The notes below the pieces were generated by a model that saw nothing but the letters and a program-made list of their open reading frames with translations, ran no database searches and was not told the DNA's origin. Shown here in pieces: positions 4,604 to 62,284 of a stretch of DNA of 64,000 nucleotides; position 1 is the first letter of the stretch; the number at the start of each line of letters is the position of its first letter. This stretch comes from Chloroflexota bacterium (GTDB lineage Bacteria; Chloroflexota; UBA11872; UBA12225; JAJDUF01), in assembly GCA_034422515.1 (NCBI GenBank), contig DAOUJP010000010.1, positions 200,123 to 264,122 on the forward strand. The letters are read 5' to 3'. The position numbers and the translations under genes were made by a program.

Positions 4604-4712
4604 GTGGGCTGGACCTAACCCCCGGCCCCTTCCCTTCAGGGAAGGGGGGTCAGGACGGCGACCGGTGGCCCCCACCCCAGCCCTCCCCCGTCCCGACGGG
4701 GGAGGGTGTACG
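4604..4712. repeat. Hairpin repeat family A (GACCTAACCCCCGGCCCCTTCCC-TGCA-GGGAAGGGG) plus family C (CCCTCCCCCGTCCCGACGGGGGAGGG)
   Basis: A copies at 10575, 12110, 21310 and a degenerate one at 18300. C copies at 45470, 54590, 60650 and 62160. Confidence 0.8.
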
Positions 4713-5921: not shown

Positions 5922-6374
5922 ATGGAGAACATCACGCGACACAATCCGTTTGGGACGGGGCGGCCGTTGAGCGAGATGGTGGACAAGCTGTTCCGCGAGA
6001 GCGTCGTGTTTCCGCGGTTTGCGGAGGGCGACGAGCGGATGGTGGCGGCCGGGGTGCCGAGCCTGTACGAGACAGAGGAGGGCTACGAGCTGTATGTGGC
6101 CGTGCCCGGCGCACAGGCCGACAATCTGGACATCTCGCTGCAGGGCGACGTGATCTCGATCAGCGGCAAGAGCGCGTGGGAGGTACCGGAGAAGGCGGCG
6201 GCCATCTGGCAGGGTATCCAGCCGCGCGAGTTCCGTTTTGCCTGGCGTTTGCCCGGCGAGGTGGAGGGGAGCGAGGTGAAGGCCAAGCTGGAGCAGGGCA
6301 TCTTGCAGCTGACGCTGCCGAAGGCGCGTGCCCAGCGACCGCGGCGCATTACTATCGAGACGAACGGGAGTTGA
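5922..6374 (+). CDS. Hsp20/alpha-crystallin small heat-shock protein
   Basis: Alpha-crystallin domain: YELYVAVPG...DISLQGDVISISG...FRFAWRLPGEVE...AKLEQGILQLTLPK. Confidence 0.9.
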   Translation: MENITRHNPFGTGRPLSEMVDKLFRESVVFPRFAEGDERMVAAGVPSLYETEEGYELYVAVPGAQADNLDISLQGDVISISGKSAWEVPEKAAAIWQGIQPREFRFAWRLPGEVEGSEVKAKLEQGILQLTLPKARAQRPRRITIETNGS

Positions 6375-6386
6375 GGCGCAGGCGCA

Positions 6387-6437
6387 GGCCTCACCCCCTG
6401 GCCCCCTCTCCATCGCGGAGCGATAGAGAGGGGGTTT
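6387..6437 (+). terminator. Family-D hairpin repeat followed by TTTT; probable intrinsic terminator for hsp20
   Basis: CCCCTCTCCATCGCGGAGCGATAGAGAGGGGG then TTTTGCC directly after the hsp20 stop. Confidence 0.5.
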
Positions 6438-6487
6438 TGCCGCTTGTCGTTGCTGCGTGTGGGGGGCCATGCCCTCGGGTGGCGGGC

Positions 6488-6516
6488 TTGACTTCCTCGT
6501 GTGATTTATTTATGAT
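6488..6516 (+). promoter_or_regulatory. Sigma-70-like promoter: TTGACT, 17-nt spacer, TATGAT
   Basis: TTGACTtcctcgtgtgatttattTATGAT. It lies about 200 nt upstream of the 6714 CDS, which implies a long 5' leader. Confidence 0.45.
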
Positions 6517-6713
6517 GGTGCTCTTGGATACCGTGTAGCGGTATTCACGACACAGTGTTGGGCGCACAGACCAATGAGTGACCGCACGCCGATACCCAGC
6601 GACGCGCCGCCTGACGGGATTGTGGCCTCACGCTGCCTTGCGGCACGTTGCTGGGATGGTGCGGTTCATTGGTAGTGAGCCACAGTCCCCAACTGCAAGG
6701 GAGACACCTCGCT

Positions 6714-7376
6714 ATGTGGCCCAGACGCACTCTGCTGGCTGGCGGCATTTCCGTGCTGGCTCTTTCTCGCTCTGCTAAGGCGCAGAGTGCATTGAAGCAT
6801 GGCACAGTAGTACAACTCGATACGACACCACACATATGGGTTGCCGATTGGCAAGGTGTCCTTCATTGGGCAGGCGATACACGCGCTCTTCAAGGACGAC
6901 ATGTTGATTGGAGCAGGCACCGCCATGTATGGCTCCATACGCTAGAAGGTAACTACTTGCAGCGTGGATACGGCTACCAGGTTGGCGACCCTTGGCTTTC
7001 TCTTGGCTTGCTGAAGGACGGTGATCCTATTTACCTTCCCAAGTGGGAAACCAATTGGGCAGTACCAAAGCTGTACCACATACTCAACATCAGAGATGTT
7101 GAACTGTTTGGCATCAATGAGACGAACTACGGAAAGTTCGTTATAGATAGGACAGAGTGGGAACGACGCCATGGATTTGACGTGAACATATTGGAGCGCC
7201 ATTCTTTACCGTCTACAGTGCCAGATGTCTTTGCGGACTGCCATCAAGCTAGGGTACTATCTATCGGAAGGAGAGTTGATTTTGATGATGGCAGAGTGCG
7301 CTTTGCCTTTTGGCACAGTAGATTACCCTCTGTGCCTGACCATGACGGCGACGGTTGGGTATTGTGTGACGGGTAG
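6714..7376 (+). CDS. Hypothetical secreted protein in a low-GC island
   Basis: Signal-peptide-like N-terminus MWPRRTLLAGGISVLALSRSAKAQSA; no recognisable domain. Region GC is clearly below the genome background. Confidence 0.5.
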   Translation: MWPRRTLLAGGISVLALSRSAKAQSALKHGTVVQLDTTPHIWVADWQGVLHWAGDTRALQGRHVDWSRHRHVWLHTLEGNYLQRGYGYQVGDPWLSLGLLKDGDPIYLPKWETNWAVPKLYHILNIRDVELFGINETNYGKFVIDRTEWERRHGFDVNILERHSLPSTVPDVFADCHQARVLSIGRRVDFDDGRVRFAFWHSRLPSVPDHDGDGWVLCDG

Positions 7377-9043: not shown

Positions 9044-9186
9044 CGCGGGGCCAGCCCCCCTATGGTCCCCCCGCTGCGACGGGGGGACGGGAGTGGCGTG
9101 CTGCGCGTCTATGGCGGTGGGATTAGCGGGGAAGCGGGAGGCCTGGGTGCTGCGGCAACTGGATTGCGGCTTTCGCCGCAATGACG
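9044..9186. repeat. Repeat cluster: family B, then G-rich filler, then family E (GGATTGCGGCTTTCGCCGCAATGACGG)
   Basis: Same B-then-E arrangement as at 40182-40242. Confidence 0.75.
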
Positions 9187-54547: not shown

Positions 54548-54635
54548 CTGGCCCCCCTATAGTCCCCCCGCTGCGGCGGGGGGACGGACTGTTCCCTCCC
54601 CCGTCGGGACGGGGGAGGGCTAGGGAGGGGGCCAA
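54548..54635. repeat. Repeat cluster B plus C in the divergent intergenic region
   Basis: CCCCCCTATAGTCCCCCCGCTGCGGCGGGGGGACGG then CCCTCCCCCGTCGGGACGGGGGAGGGCTAGGGAGGGGGCC. Confidence 0.8.
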
Positions 54636-55520: not shown

Positions 55521-55811
55521 TCAGGTGGGCGTGTTGGCGAGCGACTCGCTGACGTTGGTGCCATTTGCGGCGCGAGCACAATCGAGGTCGTACATCTGCT
55601 GGAGATTAAGCCAGAAATCGGGAGTCATCCCCAAGGCTGCTCCAATCCGCAGCGCCGTGTCGACCGTGATCGGCGCTTGATGGTGGATGATTTGGTTGAG
55701 GCGTATTGGGTCCACGCCCATCGTCTGCGCTAGATGGTCCTGGCTGATGTGGAGTTCATCCAGAATCTCTACCAGATGCTCTCCTGGGTGGATCGGGTCA
55801 AGGGTGGTCAT
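55521..55811 (-). CDS. higA: HigA-type antitoxin (XRE-family HTH)
   Basis: IHPGEHLVEILDEL...LAQTMGVDPIRLNQIIHHQAPITVDTALRIGAALGMTPDFWLNLQQMYDL matches the HigA antidote consensus. Confidence 0.85.
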   Translation of the reverse strand: MTTLDPIHPGEHLVEILDELHISQDHLAQTMGVDPIRLNQIIHHQAPITVDTALRIGAALGMTPDFWLNLQQMYDLDCARAANGTNVSESLANTPT

Positions 55812-55825
55812 GGATGTTTTCCTCA

Positions 55826-56092
55826 GTGGTAGTCGGTAACTTCGATCTCCATCGCGCCTTGGGTCGTCCAACGAAAGCATACACGCCACTGGCCGTTGAT
55901 GCGAATGCTGTGTTGGCCCTTCCGGTTACCATTTGGGGGGCTTGAGGTGCAGAGAAGGCGGCGGCTTAAGGGCAGCCAGCCGCTCCCTCTCCACAACCAT
56001 CTTCGGCTCTTTGGGCGCCTGGCGCTTGGTCGGCAGGTAAGGGTACCGTTCCCCTTTGGGTATCCGTACCGTGCGCTTGTTCTTAAATCGTC
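55826..56092 (-). pseudogene. higB: higB toxin (RelE/ParE-fold HigB) disrupted by a frameshift
   Basis: N-terminal frame MKPRRFKNKRTVRIPKG...KPPPSLHLKPPKW-stop. The C-terminal HigB hallmark ...GNRKGQHSIRINGQWRVCFRWTTQGAMEIEVTDYH-stop lies in the +1 frame; it ends 14 nt before the higA ATG. Confidence 0.65.
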
Positions 56093-56990
56093 TCGGTTTC
56101 ATGGTGAGACTCCTTTCTCTGCTCTCGGCGTTCGTACCACAGACACCCCAGCGTTAAAAACACAGGGGCCGGGGAAACCCGGCCCCAATGTGTGTAGGCC
56201 TCCTTGATGTAACAGGAGGTTGTGAAGTTAAACCTCACCGTGTCGGATGGTTTGTTGCTGAAGACGGTGTATCGTTTGGAAGGTTGCCCGCAGTATTCTA
56301 GGACGTTCTAGTATTTCTACGTCAAGCTATCGGAAGATCGTTTGTAGTGCTCTGACCACAAGGGCAAGAGTGATCAGGTAGTAAGCGAATTGAATAAAGT
56401 CGTACTCCATTCAGGTCTCCTTTCCGGTCGACGCTGCGGGCGCCGTCAACCTGTATTTTTTTGGAGCGTACCAAGTAAAAACATCTACTCGGCACGATTC
56501 CATCTCTGGTGCCAGCGGTCGTGACGAGTTCTATTTCAGAAGTTTCCGGCAGTAAATCTGTTGAGATGGAAGTGTGTGATATCAGCGTGAAAAGTAATCC
56601 CGTAGTGACCTATACGGGATTGCACCGTGCTCTCCAGCCGCTAGGCTGTATTTACAGCCACAAAGAATCTTTACCTCAAAGATAACAATTGCTATTATGT
56701 AAGGACATGTAGACGCCAGAACACCTATGCCGGATTTTTCGCGATATCATCTAATTTTTTATTTGCTTACTAGAAAGACTGGAAGGCGCTGTACACCTCC
56801 TGGTAGGGAGCGGAGGTATAGAAGACTGGGAGAATACCTCTCAGTATCCATGGTACCTCCTAGGTCTACAGTAGTCAAGTAGAACGAATGGACTACTGGA
56901 GCTGGCTGGAACCTACACCAGAGCCATCAAGCCCCACAGGACGGGAGTGCCAGCTTGGCAAAGTCATTAGTAGCGACATAGCGTAGCCCC

Positions 56991-59519
56991 TCAGGTTGCG
57001 GGACAGCCCCACTGGCCCTCGACGCTGTGTATGCCCTCAATCCACACCCGGAAGGCGTCGTTAGCTGGCACGCACAGCCCCGTGTTGTGGAAGTGAAAAT
57101 TATGCAGCCTCGTCAACCTCGTCAGACTCTGCGGTAGCGGCCCGGTCAAGTTGTTACTGTAGAACCACAGCGACGTGAGGTTAGTCAGATCGCCCCACTC
57201 AGCCGGTATTGGGCCTGTCAACTCGTTGTTGGTGAGGCTCAACCAAGTGAGGCTAGTCAGATTACCCCACTCAGCCGGTAGCGGCCCGGTCAGGTTGTTG
57301 TCACCGAGGTTCAAATAGGTAAGGCTGGTCAGATTGCCCCACTCGGCCGGTAGCGGCCCGGTCAGGTCGTTGCCGTCGAGGTTCAGTCTCTCAAGTCTGG
57401 TCAGTCTGCCCAGTTCCGCTGGCAGCGGCCCCGCCAGGCTATTACCGAGACCTACAAATCCACTGACTGAACCGAGGTCCAGGCTGGTGACGCGGCCGTT
57501 GCGGTCAGTTTCGACGCCGGCCCAGAGCCTGAGTGGTGCGTCGCTCAACCAGTTCCGTTTGATCCTCCAGTTCGCGCCGTCCGTCGCATTGTAGAGCGCA
57601 ACGAGCACGGCCCGGTCCGAGGCCGGTCCTGGCTCCGGGGTGTTCGTTGGGCTGGGTGTGGGAGATGCCGGCGGCTCCGGCGTAGGTCTGGCGGTAGCCG
57701 CTGGCGCATTGGCCGGAGGCACTGCTGCTGTGTTGCTGCAGAACGGGAGGCCCGCCTCGTCGAAGTCGTTCCTAGCGACACGGCGCAGTGCCGGCGGCAG
57801 GCATCCGGTGAGTGCATTGCCGCCGAGGGACAAGAACCCCAGGTTGGCGAGCGAACCGAGTTGAGGCGGTACGACGCCCGACAGTTGATTGATGTTGAGA
57901 GTCAACGCTCGCAGGTTGACGAGAGAGCCTAGTTGGGGTGGGATAGGCCCGGACAGTTGGTTGGTGTCGAGCCACAACTGCTCCAGGTAGGTGAGGGCGC
58001 CCAGTTCGGGCGGAATGGGGCCGGACAACTGGTTTTCGCTGAGTCCTAATCCCTGCAATTTGGCGATGGCGCCCAACTGAGGCGGGATAGTGCCGGTCAA
58101 CTGGTTGTCGCTGAGATACAACACCTCCAGGTTAGCGATGGCACCCAGTTCCGGCGGGATGGTACCGGTCAGTTGGTTGTGGCCGAGGGACAACTCCCGC
58201 AGTTGCGAAAGGGTGCCCAACTGGGAGGGGGTCGTGCCGGTCAATTGGTTGACGTGGAGCCAGAGGCCCTGTAGCGAGACGAGGGTACCCAATTCGGGCG
58301 GGACGGGGCCGGTCAGTTGGTTGTAGCCGAGGGACAACTCCCGCAGTTGCGAGAGGGTGCCCAATTGCGAGGGGATGGCGCCAGTCAGTCGGTTGTCTCG
58401 GAGGTCCAACGATTGCAAGTGAGTGAGAGCGCCCAACTGAGGGGGAATAGTGCCGGTCAGCTTGCGATCAGACAGGACCAGCATGACTACCCGATGCGGC
58501 GCGCCGCCGATGGTGATGCCGTCCCAGTTGGCAACAGCAAGGTCCGCGCTCCAGTTCAGCGTGGCGCTACCGGCCAGCGTGTCTTTAGCTTGCAGCAGCG
58601 CCGTGCAATCCGCGACTAGGCCGGGGTTGTCCTGTGGTGCGGAAACCGCGATGCCATTGGCGCATGGTGATACGGTGGCCGTGGGAGCGGTGGCCGTGGG
58701 CACACCGGTCGGTGTCAAGGTAGGGGTAGGTACAGTCGTCGGAGTCACTGGGGGAGAGATGGCCGCCGCGGTAACGGTTGATGCACCGGTCGGCGTCAAG
58801 GTAGGGGTAGGTACAGCCGTCGGAGTCGCTGGCGGTGTGGTAGCAGTGGCGGTACGCTCCGTAGTCCCCGCACCCGTCTCACCAAACCAGCGCACTGCCA
58901 CCGCCTTGACTCTGGGAATGGTAATGCTCTGCCCAGAGATGGACTCGTACCGTTCTAACCAGGCTACTGCGCCGACAAACTCTATCCGGTCGTCCTCCAG
59001 CAACCGCCGCCCCGTGTAGTCGGCAAGATAGACAATGGCGCTGCTTAAAGAGTCCGGCTCGACATCGACTCGAAAGTCGTAGGTGTCTTCCCCATGCTCG
59101 ATGACTTGGACAATCTTGCCGCGGAAGTAGAAGTGCTGCCCGATGTACTGCTCGTTGTTTCTGAACAGTTCTCTATAGCCGATAGTCGGAATCTGTGCTC
59201 TGCGCTCCTCCCAGGTGGGCGTAGCGGTAGCTGCTGCCTGGCGGGAAGGCACTTGCTGGACCACCGGTGACGCAGCGGCCTCGGGGCGTGGCTCGGTCTC
59301 CTGGTCGGAGAACGAGACGGCTAAGGCGATCACGACGATGGCGAGGCCAACCAACAAGGATGTCGTTACCCCGAGCAGCCACAGGAGTAGGCGCCGGCAG
59401 CCCCCACTCTGCCGGCCAAGTAGCCGGTCACTGACACGCACTAAGCGACTGTGGAAGAGGGACAGATCCACCTTACCGGCGTCGAATGAATCTACATTTG
59501 GTGGGGACTTCTCGCTCAT
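56991..59519 (-). CDS. Large plant-type leucine-rich-repeat (LRR) protein with N-terminal TM anchor and Pro/Thr-rich linkers
   Basis: TM LLLWLLGVTTSLLVGLAIVVIAL; PT linkers TPTAVPTPTLTPTG twice; more than 12 tandem 24-residue repeats LxxLxxLxLxxNxLTGxIPxxLGx and a second LRR block at the C-terminus (GNLTSLTYLNLGDNNLTGPLPAEWG). Confidence 0.85.
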   Translation of the reverse strand: MSEKSPPNVDSFDAGKVDLSLFHSRLVRVSDRLLGRQSGGCRRLLLWLLGVTTSLLVGLAIVVIALAVSFSDQETEPRPEAAASPVVQQVPSRQAAATATPTWEERRAQIPTIGYRELFRNNEQYIGQHFYFRGKIVQVIEHGEDTYDFRVDVEPDSLSSAIVYLADYTGRRLLEDDRIEFVGAVAWLERYESISGQSITIPRVKAVAVRWFGETGAGTTERTATATTPPATPTAVPTPTLTPTGASTVTAAAISPPVTPTTVPTPTLTPTGVPTATAPTATVSPCANGIAVSAPQDNPGLVADCTALLQAKDTLAGSATLNWSADLAVANWDGITIGGAPHRVVMLVLSDRKLTGTIPPQLGALTHLQSLDLRDNRLTGAIPSQLGTLSQLRELSLGYNQLTGPVPPELGTLVSLQGLWLHVNQLTGTTPSQLGTLSQLRELSLGHNQLTGTIPPELGAIANLEVLYLSDNQLTGTIPPQLGAIAKLQGLGLSENQLSGPIPPELGALTYLEQLWLDTNQLSGPIPPQLGSLVNLRALTLNINQLSGVVPPQLGSLANLGFLSLGGNALTGCLPPALRRVARNDFDEAGLPFCSNTAAVPPANAPAATARPTPEPPASPTPSPTNTPEPGPASDRAVLVALYNATDGANWRIKRNWLSDAPLRLWAGVETDRNGRVTSLDLGSVSGFVGLGNSLAGPLPAELGRLTRLERLNLDGNDLTGPLPAEWGNLTSLTYLNLGDNNLTGPLPAEWGNLTSLTWLSLTNNELTGPIPAEWGDLTNLTSLWFYSNNLTGPLPQSLTRLTRLHNFHFHNTGLCVPANDAFRVWIEGIHSVEGQWGCPAT

Positions 59520-60574: not shown

Positions 60575-60700
60575 GGCCCCCCTACAGCATGTCCCATACC
60601 CACCCCTGTCGGGGACCATAGCGGAGCGCGCCGCCAGCCCACGCCTCATCCCCTCCCCTGTCGGGACGGGGGAGGGCTAGGGTGGGGGCCTGCCCTCCTC
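60575..60700. repeat. Repeat cluster: B-like then C
   Basis: GGCCCCCCTACAGCATGTCCC...GGGGACCATAG then CCCTCCCCTGTCGGGACGGGGGAGGGCTAGGGTGGGGGCC. Confidence 0.7.
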
Positions 60701-62154: not shown

Positions 62155-62275
62155 CCTGGCCCCCACCCTCGCCCTCCCCCGTCCCGACGGGGGAGGGAAC
62201 ATGTCGTGCCTCCACCGCAGCGGCCCACGCCGCCGTCCCCCTGCCGCAGCGGGGGGACCATAGGGGGGCCAGCAC
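62155..62275. repeat. Repeat cluster: C then reverse-orientation B
   Basis: CCCTCCCCCGTCCCGACGGGGGAGGG ... CGCAGCGGGGGGACCATAGGGGGGCC. Confidence 0.8.
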
Positions 62276-62284
62276 CGGCAGCGT

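Follow-up and report, generated by a model that had tools for sequence, protein, structure and literature searches.

We analysed a 64,000-nucleotide stretch of a Chloroflexota genome (contig DAOUJP010000010.1 of assembly GCA_034422515.1), referred to here as the window, which carries on its minus strand a gene for a leucine-rich repeat (LRR) protein of 842 amino acids (aa). The open reading frame (ORF) starts with ATG in the ORF list, and the same product was found, letter for letter, on an independent Logan assembly contig from run SRR13587046. The start codon and the N terminus are kept in protein P0001 and at locus L004, two relatives from syntenic genomes that are compared with the window below. 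The original prediction, made from the sequence alone, was a plant-type LRR protein with a membrane anchor, Pro/Thr linkers, and two LRR blocks, and each of these elements was indeed found in the ORF (Table 1). The prediction placed only linkers between the anchor and the repeats. There is a linker at this place, but a folded domain of 120 aa intervenes as well. Blocks A and B contain LRRs of different types, and each has its own N- and C-caps.

Table 1. Features of the LRR protein gene, with positions in the window
Feature	Residues (aa)	Position	Strand	Basis
Whole gene	842 plus stop	56991..59519	-	ORF list; identical product in independent assembly
Cytoplasmic N-terminal tail (predicted), Arg-rich beside membrane	1-42	59394..59519	-	Sequence; no Pfam match
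Transmembrane signal anchor (predicted), single	~43-69	59313..59393	-	Kyte-Doolittle plot; predicted topology
Short acidic, Pro/Ala-rich spacer	70-94	59238..59312	-	Sequence
Membrane-proximal OB-fold-like beta-barrel domain (NTD)	95-215	58875..59237	-	AlphaFold2, Foldseek, profile search
Pro/Thr-rich linker 1, with 27-aa tandem duplication	216-285	58665..58874	-	Tandem Repeats Finder
N-cap A (Cys288, Cys307, helix, NPGLVADC motif)	286-340	58500..58664	-	Sub-threshold LRRNT_2 match; model helix
LRR block A, 10 x 24 aa	341-580	57780..58499	-	Register, consensus, Pfam
C-cap A (with last unit: ...TGCLPPALRRVARNDFDEAGLPFC)	581-596	57732..57779	-	Motif kept in relatives
Pro/Thr/Ala linker 2	597-640	57600..57731	-	Predicted disorder
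N-cap B (DRAVLVALYNATDGANW...NWLSDAPLRLWAGVETDRNGRVTSLDL)	641-681	57477..57599	-	Sub-threshold LRR_10 match; homology to P0272-P0274, P0294, P0323
LRR block B, 5 x 24 aa (LTGPLPAEWGN type)	682-801	57117..57476	-	Register, consensus
Degenerate last unit and C-cap B (GLCVPANDAFRVWIEGIHSVEGQWGCPAT)	802-842	56994..57116	-	Motif match to end of P0273

Sixteen repeat units stand in an exact 24-aa register, ten of them at aa 341 to 580 and, at aa 682 to 825, five more followed by a degenerate capping unit. Their consensus is LxxLxxLxLxxNxLTGPxPPxLGx. Within the conserved segment, Leu4, Leu7, and Asn12 each occur in 14 of the 16 units, Leu9 in 13, and Leu14 in all 16; the variable segment has Thr or Ser at position 15 in 14 units, Gly16 in 15, Ile, Leu, or Val at position 18 in 14, Pro19 in 15, Leu22 in 12, and Gly23 in 13. 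The plant-specific (PS) class of LRRs is defined as LxxLxLxxNxL(t/s)GxIPxxLGxLxx, with a length of 23 to 25 and typically 24 residues (PMC2946307). The units of this gene have the period of 24, the LxxLxLxxNxL stretch with its ladder Asn, and the (t/s)GxIPxxLGxLxx segment. The predicted 24-residue PS-class repeats with a conserved Asn are thus borne out; a different period or a loss of the Asn, the two signs to the contrary, were looked for and are not there. At the nucleotide (nt) level, Tandem Repeats Finder reported 72-nt (24-codon) periods spanning 57178-57438 and 57839-58460, a 144-nt super-repeat of two units, and, within Pro/Thr linker 1, an 81-nt repeat in 1.9 copies with 84% matches (58703-58854). 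Four Pfam families are matched above their curated cut-offs: LRR_1 (E = 7.7e-44), LRR_4 (8.2e-39), LRR_14 (4.2e-32), and LRR_8 (2.7e-28). The last had been proposed as a check, together with LRRNT_2, which did not pass: cap A reaches 15 bits where 20.7 are required, and cap B has no LRRNT_2 match and a weak, sub-threshold match to LRR_10.

An AlphaFold2 model of the ectodomain (aa 286 to 842) had a mean predicted local distance difference test score (pLDDT) of 89. It contains two ordered solenoids, at protein residues 286 to 596 and 630 to 842, each with an N-terminal helical cap. The cap A helix falls at model residues 14 to 30 (pLDDT >90) and the cap B helix at model residues 347 to 360, and paired Cys residues are present in the caps. 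Block A was modelled with a pLDDT of 94 to 98, and linker 2 is predicted to be disordered (model residues 314 to 341, pLDDT <50). Many units in the predicted model consist of two strands and a 5-residue helix; the structural unit described for PS-LRRs is beta-beta-3_10 (PMC5976695). Most scaffold and convex positions (1, 4, 7, 9, 12, 14, 15, 16, 19, 22, and 23) are conserved in 11 to 16 of the 16 units. The concave face is hypervariable: at positions 5, 6, 8, 10, and 11, even the most frequent residue is found in just 3 or 4 units.

The top 50 structural neighbours of the model in the PDB are all plant LRR receptor ectodomains, at 20 to 30% identity. The best sequence matches among solved structures come from the same group, for the whole protein and for each block (MIK2 at 8.6e-142, GSO1, FLS2, and BRL2), with E values for block A down to about 1e-154. 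The first bacterial proteins among the solved structures are the Leptospira LIC proteins, at 1e-57 to 1e-68 (4.4e-57 is among these values).

The only strongly hydrophobic stretch of the protein lies at about aa 43 to 69, where Kyte-Doolittle 19-residue windows score 1.7 to 2.6 (starts 43 to 56 only). Five Arg residues come directly before it and acidic residues directly after it, which fits an N-in/C-out (type II) signal anchor. The N-terminal domain (NTD) that follows was modelled by AlphaFold2 with a pLDDT of 85 as three short helices and then a five-stranded barrel. Its nearest folds in Foldseek are OB folds, namely the anticodon-binding domains of aspartyl- and asparaginyl-tRNA synthetases and single-stranded DNA-binding proteins (best E 8.6e-4, TMq 0.58). 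A membrane-proximal five-stranded barrel after an anchor is also seen in the OB-fold lipoprotein domains Slp and DUF4839. The NTD of the window, however, matches neither of these models, nor any other Pfam family at threshold. Relatives in its family match the two weakly; the multi-copy protein P0125 passes both as a whole protein only (Slp, 38.3 versus 22.5 bits; DUF4839, 29 versus 25), and no single stretch of it passes alone.

A word-indexed search found 4 relatives of the NTD. In a profile search, 4,130 of 1.84 billion cluster representatives scored E<=1e-3, and 1,960 reached E<=1e-10, including family members with up to five tandem copies of the domain. In proteins P0125-P0130, P0135, and P0141 (535 to 739 aa), the OB-fold domain occurs four or five times in tandem, a repeat architecture that has no name. 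Hosts among 31 genome loci are Chloroflexota, many of them Dehalococcoidia and some Caldilineales, and a few archaeal metagenome-assembled genomes (MAGs). A hydrophobic anchor precedes the domain at 25 of the 31 loci, and its partners across the family are LRRs, DUF4352, a trypsin-like peptidase, TPR, and a PsbP-like domain. We read the NTD as what is probably a generic membrane-proximal carrier module. With more than 4,000 cluster representatives and no match here from Pfam models, this OB-fold stalk family deserves a family description of its own. The archaeal carriers, L012, L028, and L029 (Woesearchaeota and one unclassified archaeon), are 34 to 45% identical, and their occurrence suggests that this envelope module may have spread between domains of life. 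Two paralogues of the window gene, L006 (JAJDZR010000132.1) and L007 (OY759972.1), are shorter, with the OB domain, a cap A, 7 or 8 units, and a C-cap. They start with lipobox-like signals (LGVTGC and LGITGC) in place of the transmembrane helix. Since OY759972.1 bears both L007 and the syntenic locus L005, that genome has at least two genes of the family.

The ectodomains of plant LRR receptor kinases and receptor-like proteins (MIK2, GSO1, FLS2, BRL2, and PEPR1; PMC2946307) share with our protein the 24-residue repeat, the capped solenoids, and the predicted strand-strand-short-helix unit. An LRR ectodomain with a single helix and a short tail resembles plant receptor-like proteins in outline. 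The protein might thus act as an analogous transmembrane receptor, in which ligand binding by the LRRs is signalled through the helix to the 42-aa tail, which would then recruit a partner. The structural matches to plant receptors point in this direction, as does the conservation of the tail, which is 91% identical in P0001. However, a Pfam scan of the tail gave no recognised domain, and it is replaced in syntenic L005 and absent from the lipobox-type L006 and L007. The product has no match to a kinase family, and no kinase, histidine kinase, or regulator adjoins the gene, whose neighbours encode PhyH, MgsA, ABC-F, HigBA, and a short-chain dehydrogenase/reductase (SDR). The orientation is also reversed, as the sole hydrophobic stretch is N-terminal here and C-terminal in the plant receptors, which are type I. 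The protein further differs from them in its caps, which fall under the LRRNT_2 threshold, in the added OB-fold domain and Pro/Thr stalks, in its low identity (20 to 30%), and in its bacterial host. We consider a signalling receptor improbable. We favour a tethered surface binding protein: the anchors are interchangeable, a helix here and a lipobox-like signal in L006 and L007, which argues that tethering matters and signalling does not.

To follow the gene among close relatives, we compared the window with L002 (encoding P0001; a 428-kb scaffold, SAMN17524321), L004 (OZ242293.1), and L005 (OY759972.1). The closest genomes are those of L004 and L005, which are Chloroflexota MAG chromosomes of 4.4 Mb, each in a single contig. 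The genes that flank the LRR gene, for ABC-F, MgsA, and PhyH on one side and for HigBA, SDR, and a CoA-transferase on the other, show 88 to 91% nt identity among the four, and the PhyH protein is 93 to 94% identical. P0001 is a full-length relative with 61% identity across 97% of the length, and it alone among the matches has the anchor-OB-linker-LRR layout over that extent. The ectodomain of the window consists of cap A, 10 units, a linker, cap B, and 5 units. That of P0001 has cap A, about 12 units, a second cap A, and about 6 units, and the protein stops at a cap-A-type C-cap. L005 has a different N terminus followed by two cap-A blocks. L004 shares the tail, the helix, and the OB domain with the window (92% identity; 69% for the tail), and then has a predicted non-LRR region of about 150 aa as its C terminus (6352-6831 of the OZ242293.1 locus). 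This region has no Pfam match and no LRRs; it is an alternative passenger on the same carrier. The C-cap A motif closes every cap-A-type block in P0001, L005, L006, and L007.

Within block A, orthology is mosaic. Cap A of the window has its orthologue in the second cap A of L002, with a synonymous divergence (dS) of 0.237, versus 0.568 against the first. Units 485-580 have 86 to 98% nt identity to units 736-831 of L002 (unit 485 versus 736, 98%; unit 533 versus 784, 97%), and units 341-484 have no orthologue there (dS 1.66, saturated). Cap A and units 485-596 compared with the second block of L002 gave a dS of 0.20 to 0.24 and a dN/dS of 0.26 to 0.46, the value for units 485-596 being 0.26; for aa 1-215 the dN/dS is 0.18. 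Overall, the dS of the orthologous segments is 0.20 to 0.25, which is the level of the flanking genes (PhyH, 0.24; SDR, 0.29). Judged from these substitution rates, the gene appears to be functional, and its orthologous parts are under purifying selection.

Because L002 and L005 each have two cap-A blocks, the simplest history of the window gene would have three parts. The two caps would have recombined with each other, so that the first block was lost; the central units would have been replaced or expanded; and block B would have been acquired. The original prediction was recent internal expansion, suggested by the duplicated linker and the partial repeat units. One pair of units, 389/437, does look recent, with 89% nt identity; the next is 706/730 at 81%, and every other pair has 29 to 74%. 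The linker is a different matter. The 27-aa duplication in linker 1 is present in the orthologue P0001 too, so it is older than the split between the window and P0001. The dominant process is module-level deletion, replacement, and fusion, and not simple tandem expansion. As the flanks stay about 90% identical, the locus offers a clean four-genome example of LRR diversification behind a conserved anchor.

We also weighed whether assembly artefacts in MAGs, for example collapsed repeats or chimeric joins, could account for the differences between genomes. The gene does contain repeats, and metagenome assembly was the source of at least some of the sequences compared. However, the units are diverged, mostly at 29 to 74% nt identity with a maximum of 89% over 72 nt, so that short-read collapse is unlikely. 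Two independent assemblies yielded identical copies of the window product, and the same holds for P0001; L004 and L005 come from the single-contig chromosomes. All reading frames are intact, and the dS of orthologous segments equals that of the flanks. Artefacts are thus a very doubtful explanation for what we read as module exchange in a surface binding protein.

Block B is absent from the orthologous genes of L002, L004, and L005; the window segment 57738-56991, and linker 2 within it, have no counterpart in L002. Its best relatives are four secreted proteins of about 361 aa, P0273, P0274, P0294, and P0323. These have a signal peptide that looks cleavable, a different N-terminal domain of about 170 aa, and a Pro-rich linker, followed by cap B, five units of the LTGPLPAE type, and a near-identical C-cap, C[AV]PANDAFRVWIEGI..V.G.WGCPA[ST]. 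The relatives are separate genes, whereas here the module is fused behind block A. The block B region aligns with them at 53 to 56% aa and about 74% nt identity, and the alignment reaches the stop codon; the figures of about 56% aa and 74% nt are for the C-terminal half of P0273, which ends in nearly the same C-cap motif, CAPANDAFRVWIEGINSVRGKWGCPAS, with 83% nt identity over the last stretch. P0273 shares a scaffold with P0001, about 62 kb apart. From these comparisons, block B appears to belong to a paralogous family of the same clade, from which it has diverged, and to have been fused at the C terminus; it would be neither a fresh copy nor foreign. We looked for synteny between the start of the window and the P0273 locus on the sister scaffold and found no long match.

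Another source for this diversity could be a diversity-generating element or a set of silent cassettes. A tblastn search of the protein against the 64-kb window found no LRR-like sequence outside the gene, and there are no template repeats or cassettes near it. On the evidence of the alignments, diversity comes from recombination of units and modules.

Plant-type LRR proteins had been described in the original prediction as uncommon in bacteria, which did not hold. Among 8,000 candidates examined, at least 5,277 are homologues of the full-length protein at E<=1e-10. The best 120 of those matches are 928 to 1,474 aa long, show 35 to 61% identity, and lie on contigs of up to 5.9 Mb; one named match is from Caldilineaceae bacterium SB0662_bin_25. 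Most homologues lie on contigs of bacterial size, and many carry fused domains of bacterial type, for example Trypsin_2, SH3_3, subtilase, FN3, or Big_2. Bacterial PS-LRRs are also already published: Miyashita et al. 2013, as cited in PMC4232680 (its reference 40), reported them and proposed horizontal gene transfer (HGT) between plants and bacteria, and LRR "eukaryotic-like proteins" (ELPs) have been reported from sponge-associated Caldilineae and SAR202 Chloroflexi (PMC6306507). Our protein has the repeat class in common with the bacterial PS-type LRR proteins of metagenomes and MAGs, the ELPs included, at 35 to 61% identity, and its organism is likewise a member of the Chloroflexota; it falls in the operational class of ELPs as a eukaryotic-type repeat protein (ANK, TPR, or LRR class) encoded by a bacterium. 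It differs from most of the top bacterial PS-LRR matches, which have 1,000 to 1,470 aa with trypsin, SH3, subtilase, FN3, or Big_2 domains. It is a repeat protein of a known kind in which the domain combination is unreported and the module shuffling is instructive. Plant-type LRR proteins make up a large and mostly unannotated share of bacterial surface proteomes, notably in Chloroflexota. The Leptospira proteins LIC11098, LIC10831, and LIC12759 and the Listeria internalins are likewise bacterial surface or secreted LRR binding proteins. They differ in repeat class, length, caps, and anchoring, which is by lipoprotein, LPXTG, or GW modules.

We also considered whether a plant or an alga was the recent donor of the gene or of its LRR modules. 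The closest solved structures are all plant proteins, block B matches proteins of Laminaria, Monoraphidium, and Leptomonas at 44 to 46% identity, and plant-bacterium transfer of PS-LRRs is the proposal of Miyashita et al. just mentioned. However, bacterial relatives are closer (40 to 65% identity) than the plant structures (20 to 30%), and the identity of block B to the algal and kinetoplastid proteins is similar to that of many bacterial matches, a similarity driven by the consensus. The composition of the gene is native-like and slightly relaxed (GC 0.62 and GC at third codon positions, GC3, 0.73; window GC 0.64; GC3 of the neighbours 0.81 to 0.86). The caps, at 15 bits versus 20.7 for LRRNT_2, are of a bacterial type, and cap-A and cap-B modules occur as several paralogues inside this Chloroflexota clade. 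Recent transfer is therefore highly unlikely; an ancient one, in either direction, may have taken place.

A further possibility would be an effector, secreted or injected, that imitates the LRR proteins of a host. Xanthomonas XopL, XopAE, and XopAC have plant-type LRR units and gave the best NCBIfam matches, with E values of 1.1e-13, 9.4e-31, and 6.4e-30, respectively. Their scores, however, are far under the curated cut-offs, at 10 to 23% of them (XopAE, 107.2 versus 600; XopAC, 104.2 versus 450; XopL, 50.8 versus 500), and the matches cover the LRR part only. An effector domain, whether E3 ligase (XL-box) or Fic, was not found with Pfam and NCBIfam. The protein has an N-terminal membrane anchor and a stalk, and there are no secretion-system genes at the locus. 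Chloroflexota are not known to possess type III secretion. On the NCBIfam cut-offs and the architecture, we rejected a type III effector assignment, and an effector of any such kind seems extremely unlikely.

Taken together, we think it probable that the gene encodes a binding protein that is anchored in the membrane, displayed on the surface, and remodelled in evolution by module swapping, with a predicted binding function and a putative role in adhesion or recognition. In this protein, a single transmembrane helix would be followed by the membrane-proximal OB-fold-like domain, and the Pro/Thr stalk would hold out two independent, capped PS-LRR solenoids with the second flexible linker between them. 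Each solenoid would most likely bind a ligand through its concave face, where the hypervariable repeat positions lie. The partner molecule may belong to the matrix or sit on a second cell, be it host, neighbour, or prey, and the protein would be neither an enzyme nor a signal transducer. The anchor and the OB domain would form a conserved carrier. Recombination, both among repeats and among paralogous LRR genes, would exchange the ectodomain between close relatives, and pressure from the partner may lie behind this turnover. A position outside the cytoplasm, presumably with exposure beyond the envelope, is backed by the N-terminal anchor with Arg on its N side, the Cys pairs of the caps, and the Pro/Thr linkers. 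It is also backed by the lipobox-like signals of L006 and L007 (VTGC and ITGC) and by the extracytoplasmic passengers of the OB domain elsewhere. Binding partners, if found, would reveal what these uncultivated bacteria attach to or recognise.

Several points weigh against this reading. The predicted topology derives from a hydrophobicity plot and the positive-inside rule. The OB resemblance of the NTD is modest; it gives a fold class and is silent on function. A host-directed role is no better supported than adhesion between bacteria or to a matrix. Finally, the 10 aa differences between orthologous units fall at register positions 24, 6, 15, 17, 5, 9, 13, 23, 15, and 16 and are not concentrated on the concave face. 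Point-mutational diversifying (positive) selection on that face is thus not seen in them.

We would extend the surface binding protein only tentatively to a strain-variable recognition site. Here the anchor and OB carrier would be fixed, and whole capped LRR modules, or a non-LRR domain like that of L004, would be swapped in through recombination with paralogous genes, giving each lineage its own binding specificity under pressure from a diversifying partner such as a host, phage, or grazer. If true, the site would be a parallel in bacteria, based on module shuffling, to plant receptor clusters and to lamprey variable lymphocyte receptors.

The neighbourhood of the gene is housekeeping in character. 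Genes for ABC-F, MgsA/RarA, and a PhyH-like dioxygenase lie upstream, those for the HigB/HigA pair, SDR, and CoA-transferase lie downstream, and no secretion-system, mobile-element, or signalling genes were found there. We considered a functional link to the PhyH-like dioxygenase, for example in hydroxylation of the Pro-rich linkers. Among 31 GTDB loci, PhyH adjoins only L004 and L005. It is also present at L002, and it is absent beside the paralogues L006 and L007 and every other OB-domain locus. This adjacency is confined to syntenic genomes and so reflects shared ancestry, not coupling. The downstream gene for the HigB toxin is a pseudogene with a frameshift near 55940 plus an indel, and the 95-aa HigB that is intact in L002 aligns to it in two different frames. 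The adjoining gene for the HigA antitoxin, a helix-turn-helix protein, is intact (HigBA coordinates 55826-56102 and 55521-55889, both on the minus strand).

A 1-kb spacer downstream of the gene, at 55997-56990, has a GC content of 0.50 versus 0.64 for the window and contains no ORF longer than 58 aa, yet L002 and L004 retain it with 82 to 88% conservation. Neither similarity to the gene nor LRR remnants were found in it. We considered a known RNA in this low-GC spacer; a search against Rfam gave no family and one sub-threshold match of the kind expected by chance. A scan for promoters and terminators gave no more than is expected from shuffled sequence. The spacer has a strong terminator-like hairpin at 56186-56165 on the minus strand. 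Elsewhere in the window, GC-rich hairpin repeats (CCCT[CA]GCCCTCCCCCGTCCCGACGGGGGAGGG) occupy intergenic positions 4675-4706 (+), 54594-54625 (-), 60651-60682 (-), and 62166-62197 (+), four copies where none is expected by chance. A second hairpin type occurs at 62233-62276, 54548-54587, and 9054-9093. Hairpin repeats are also intergenic on the sister scaffold, and they look like repetitive extragenic palindromic (REP)-type elements.

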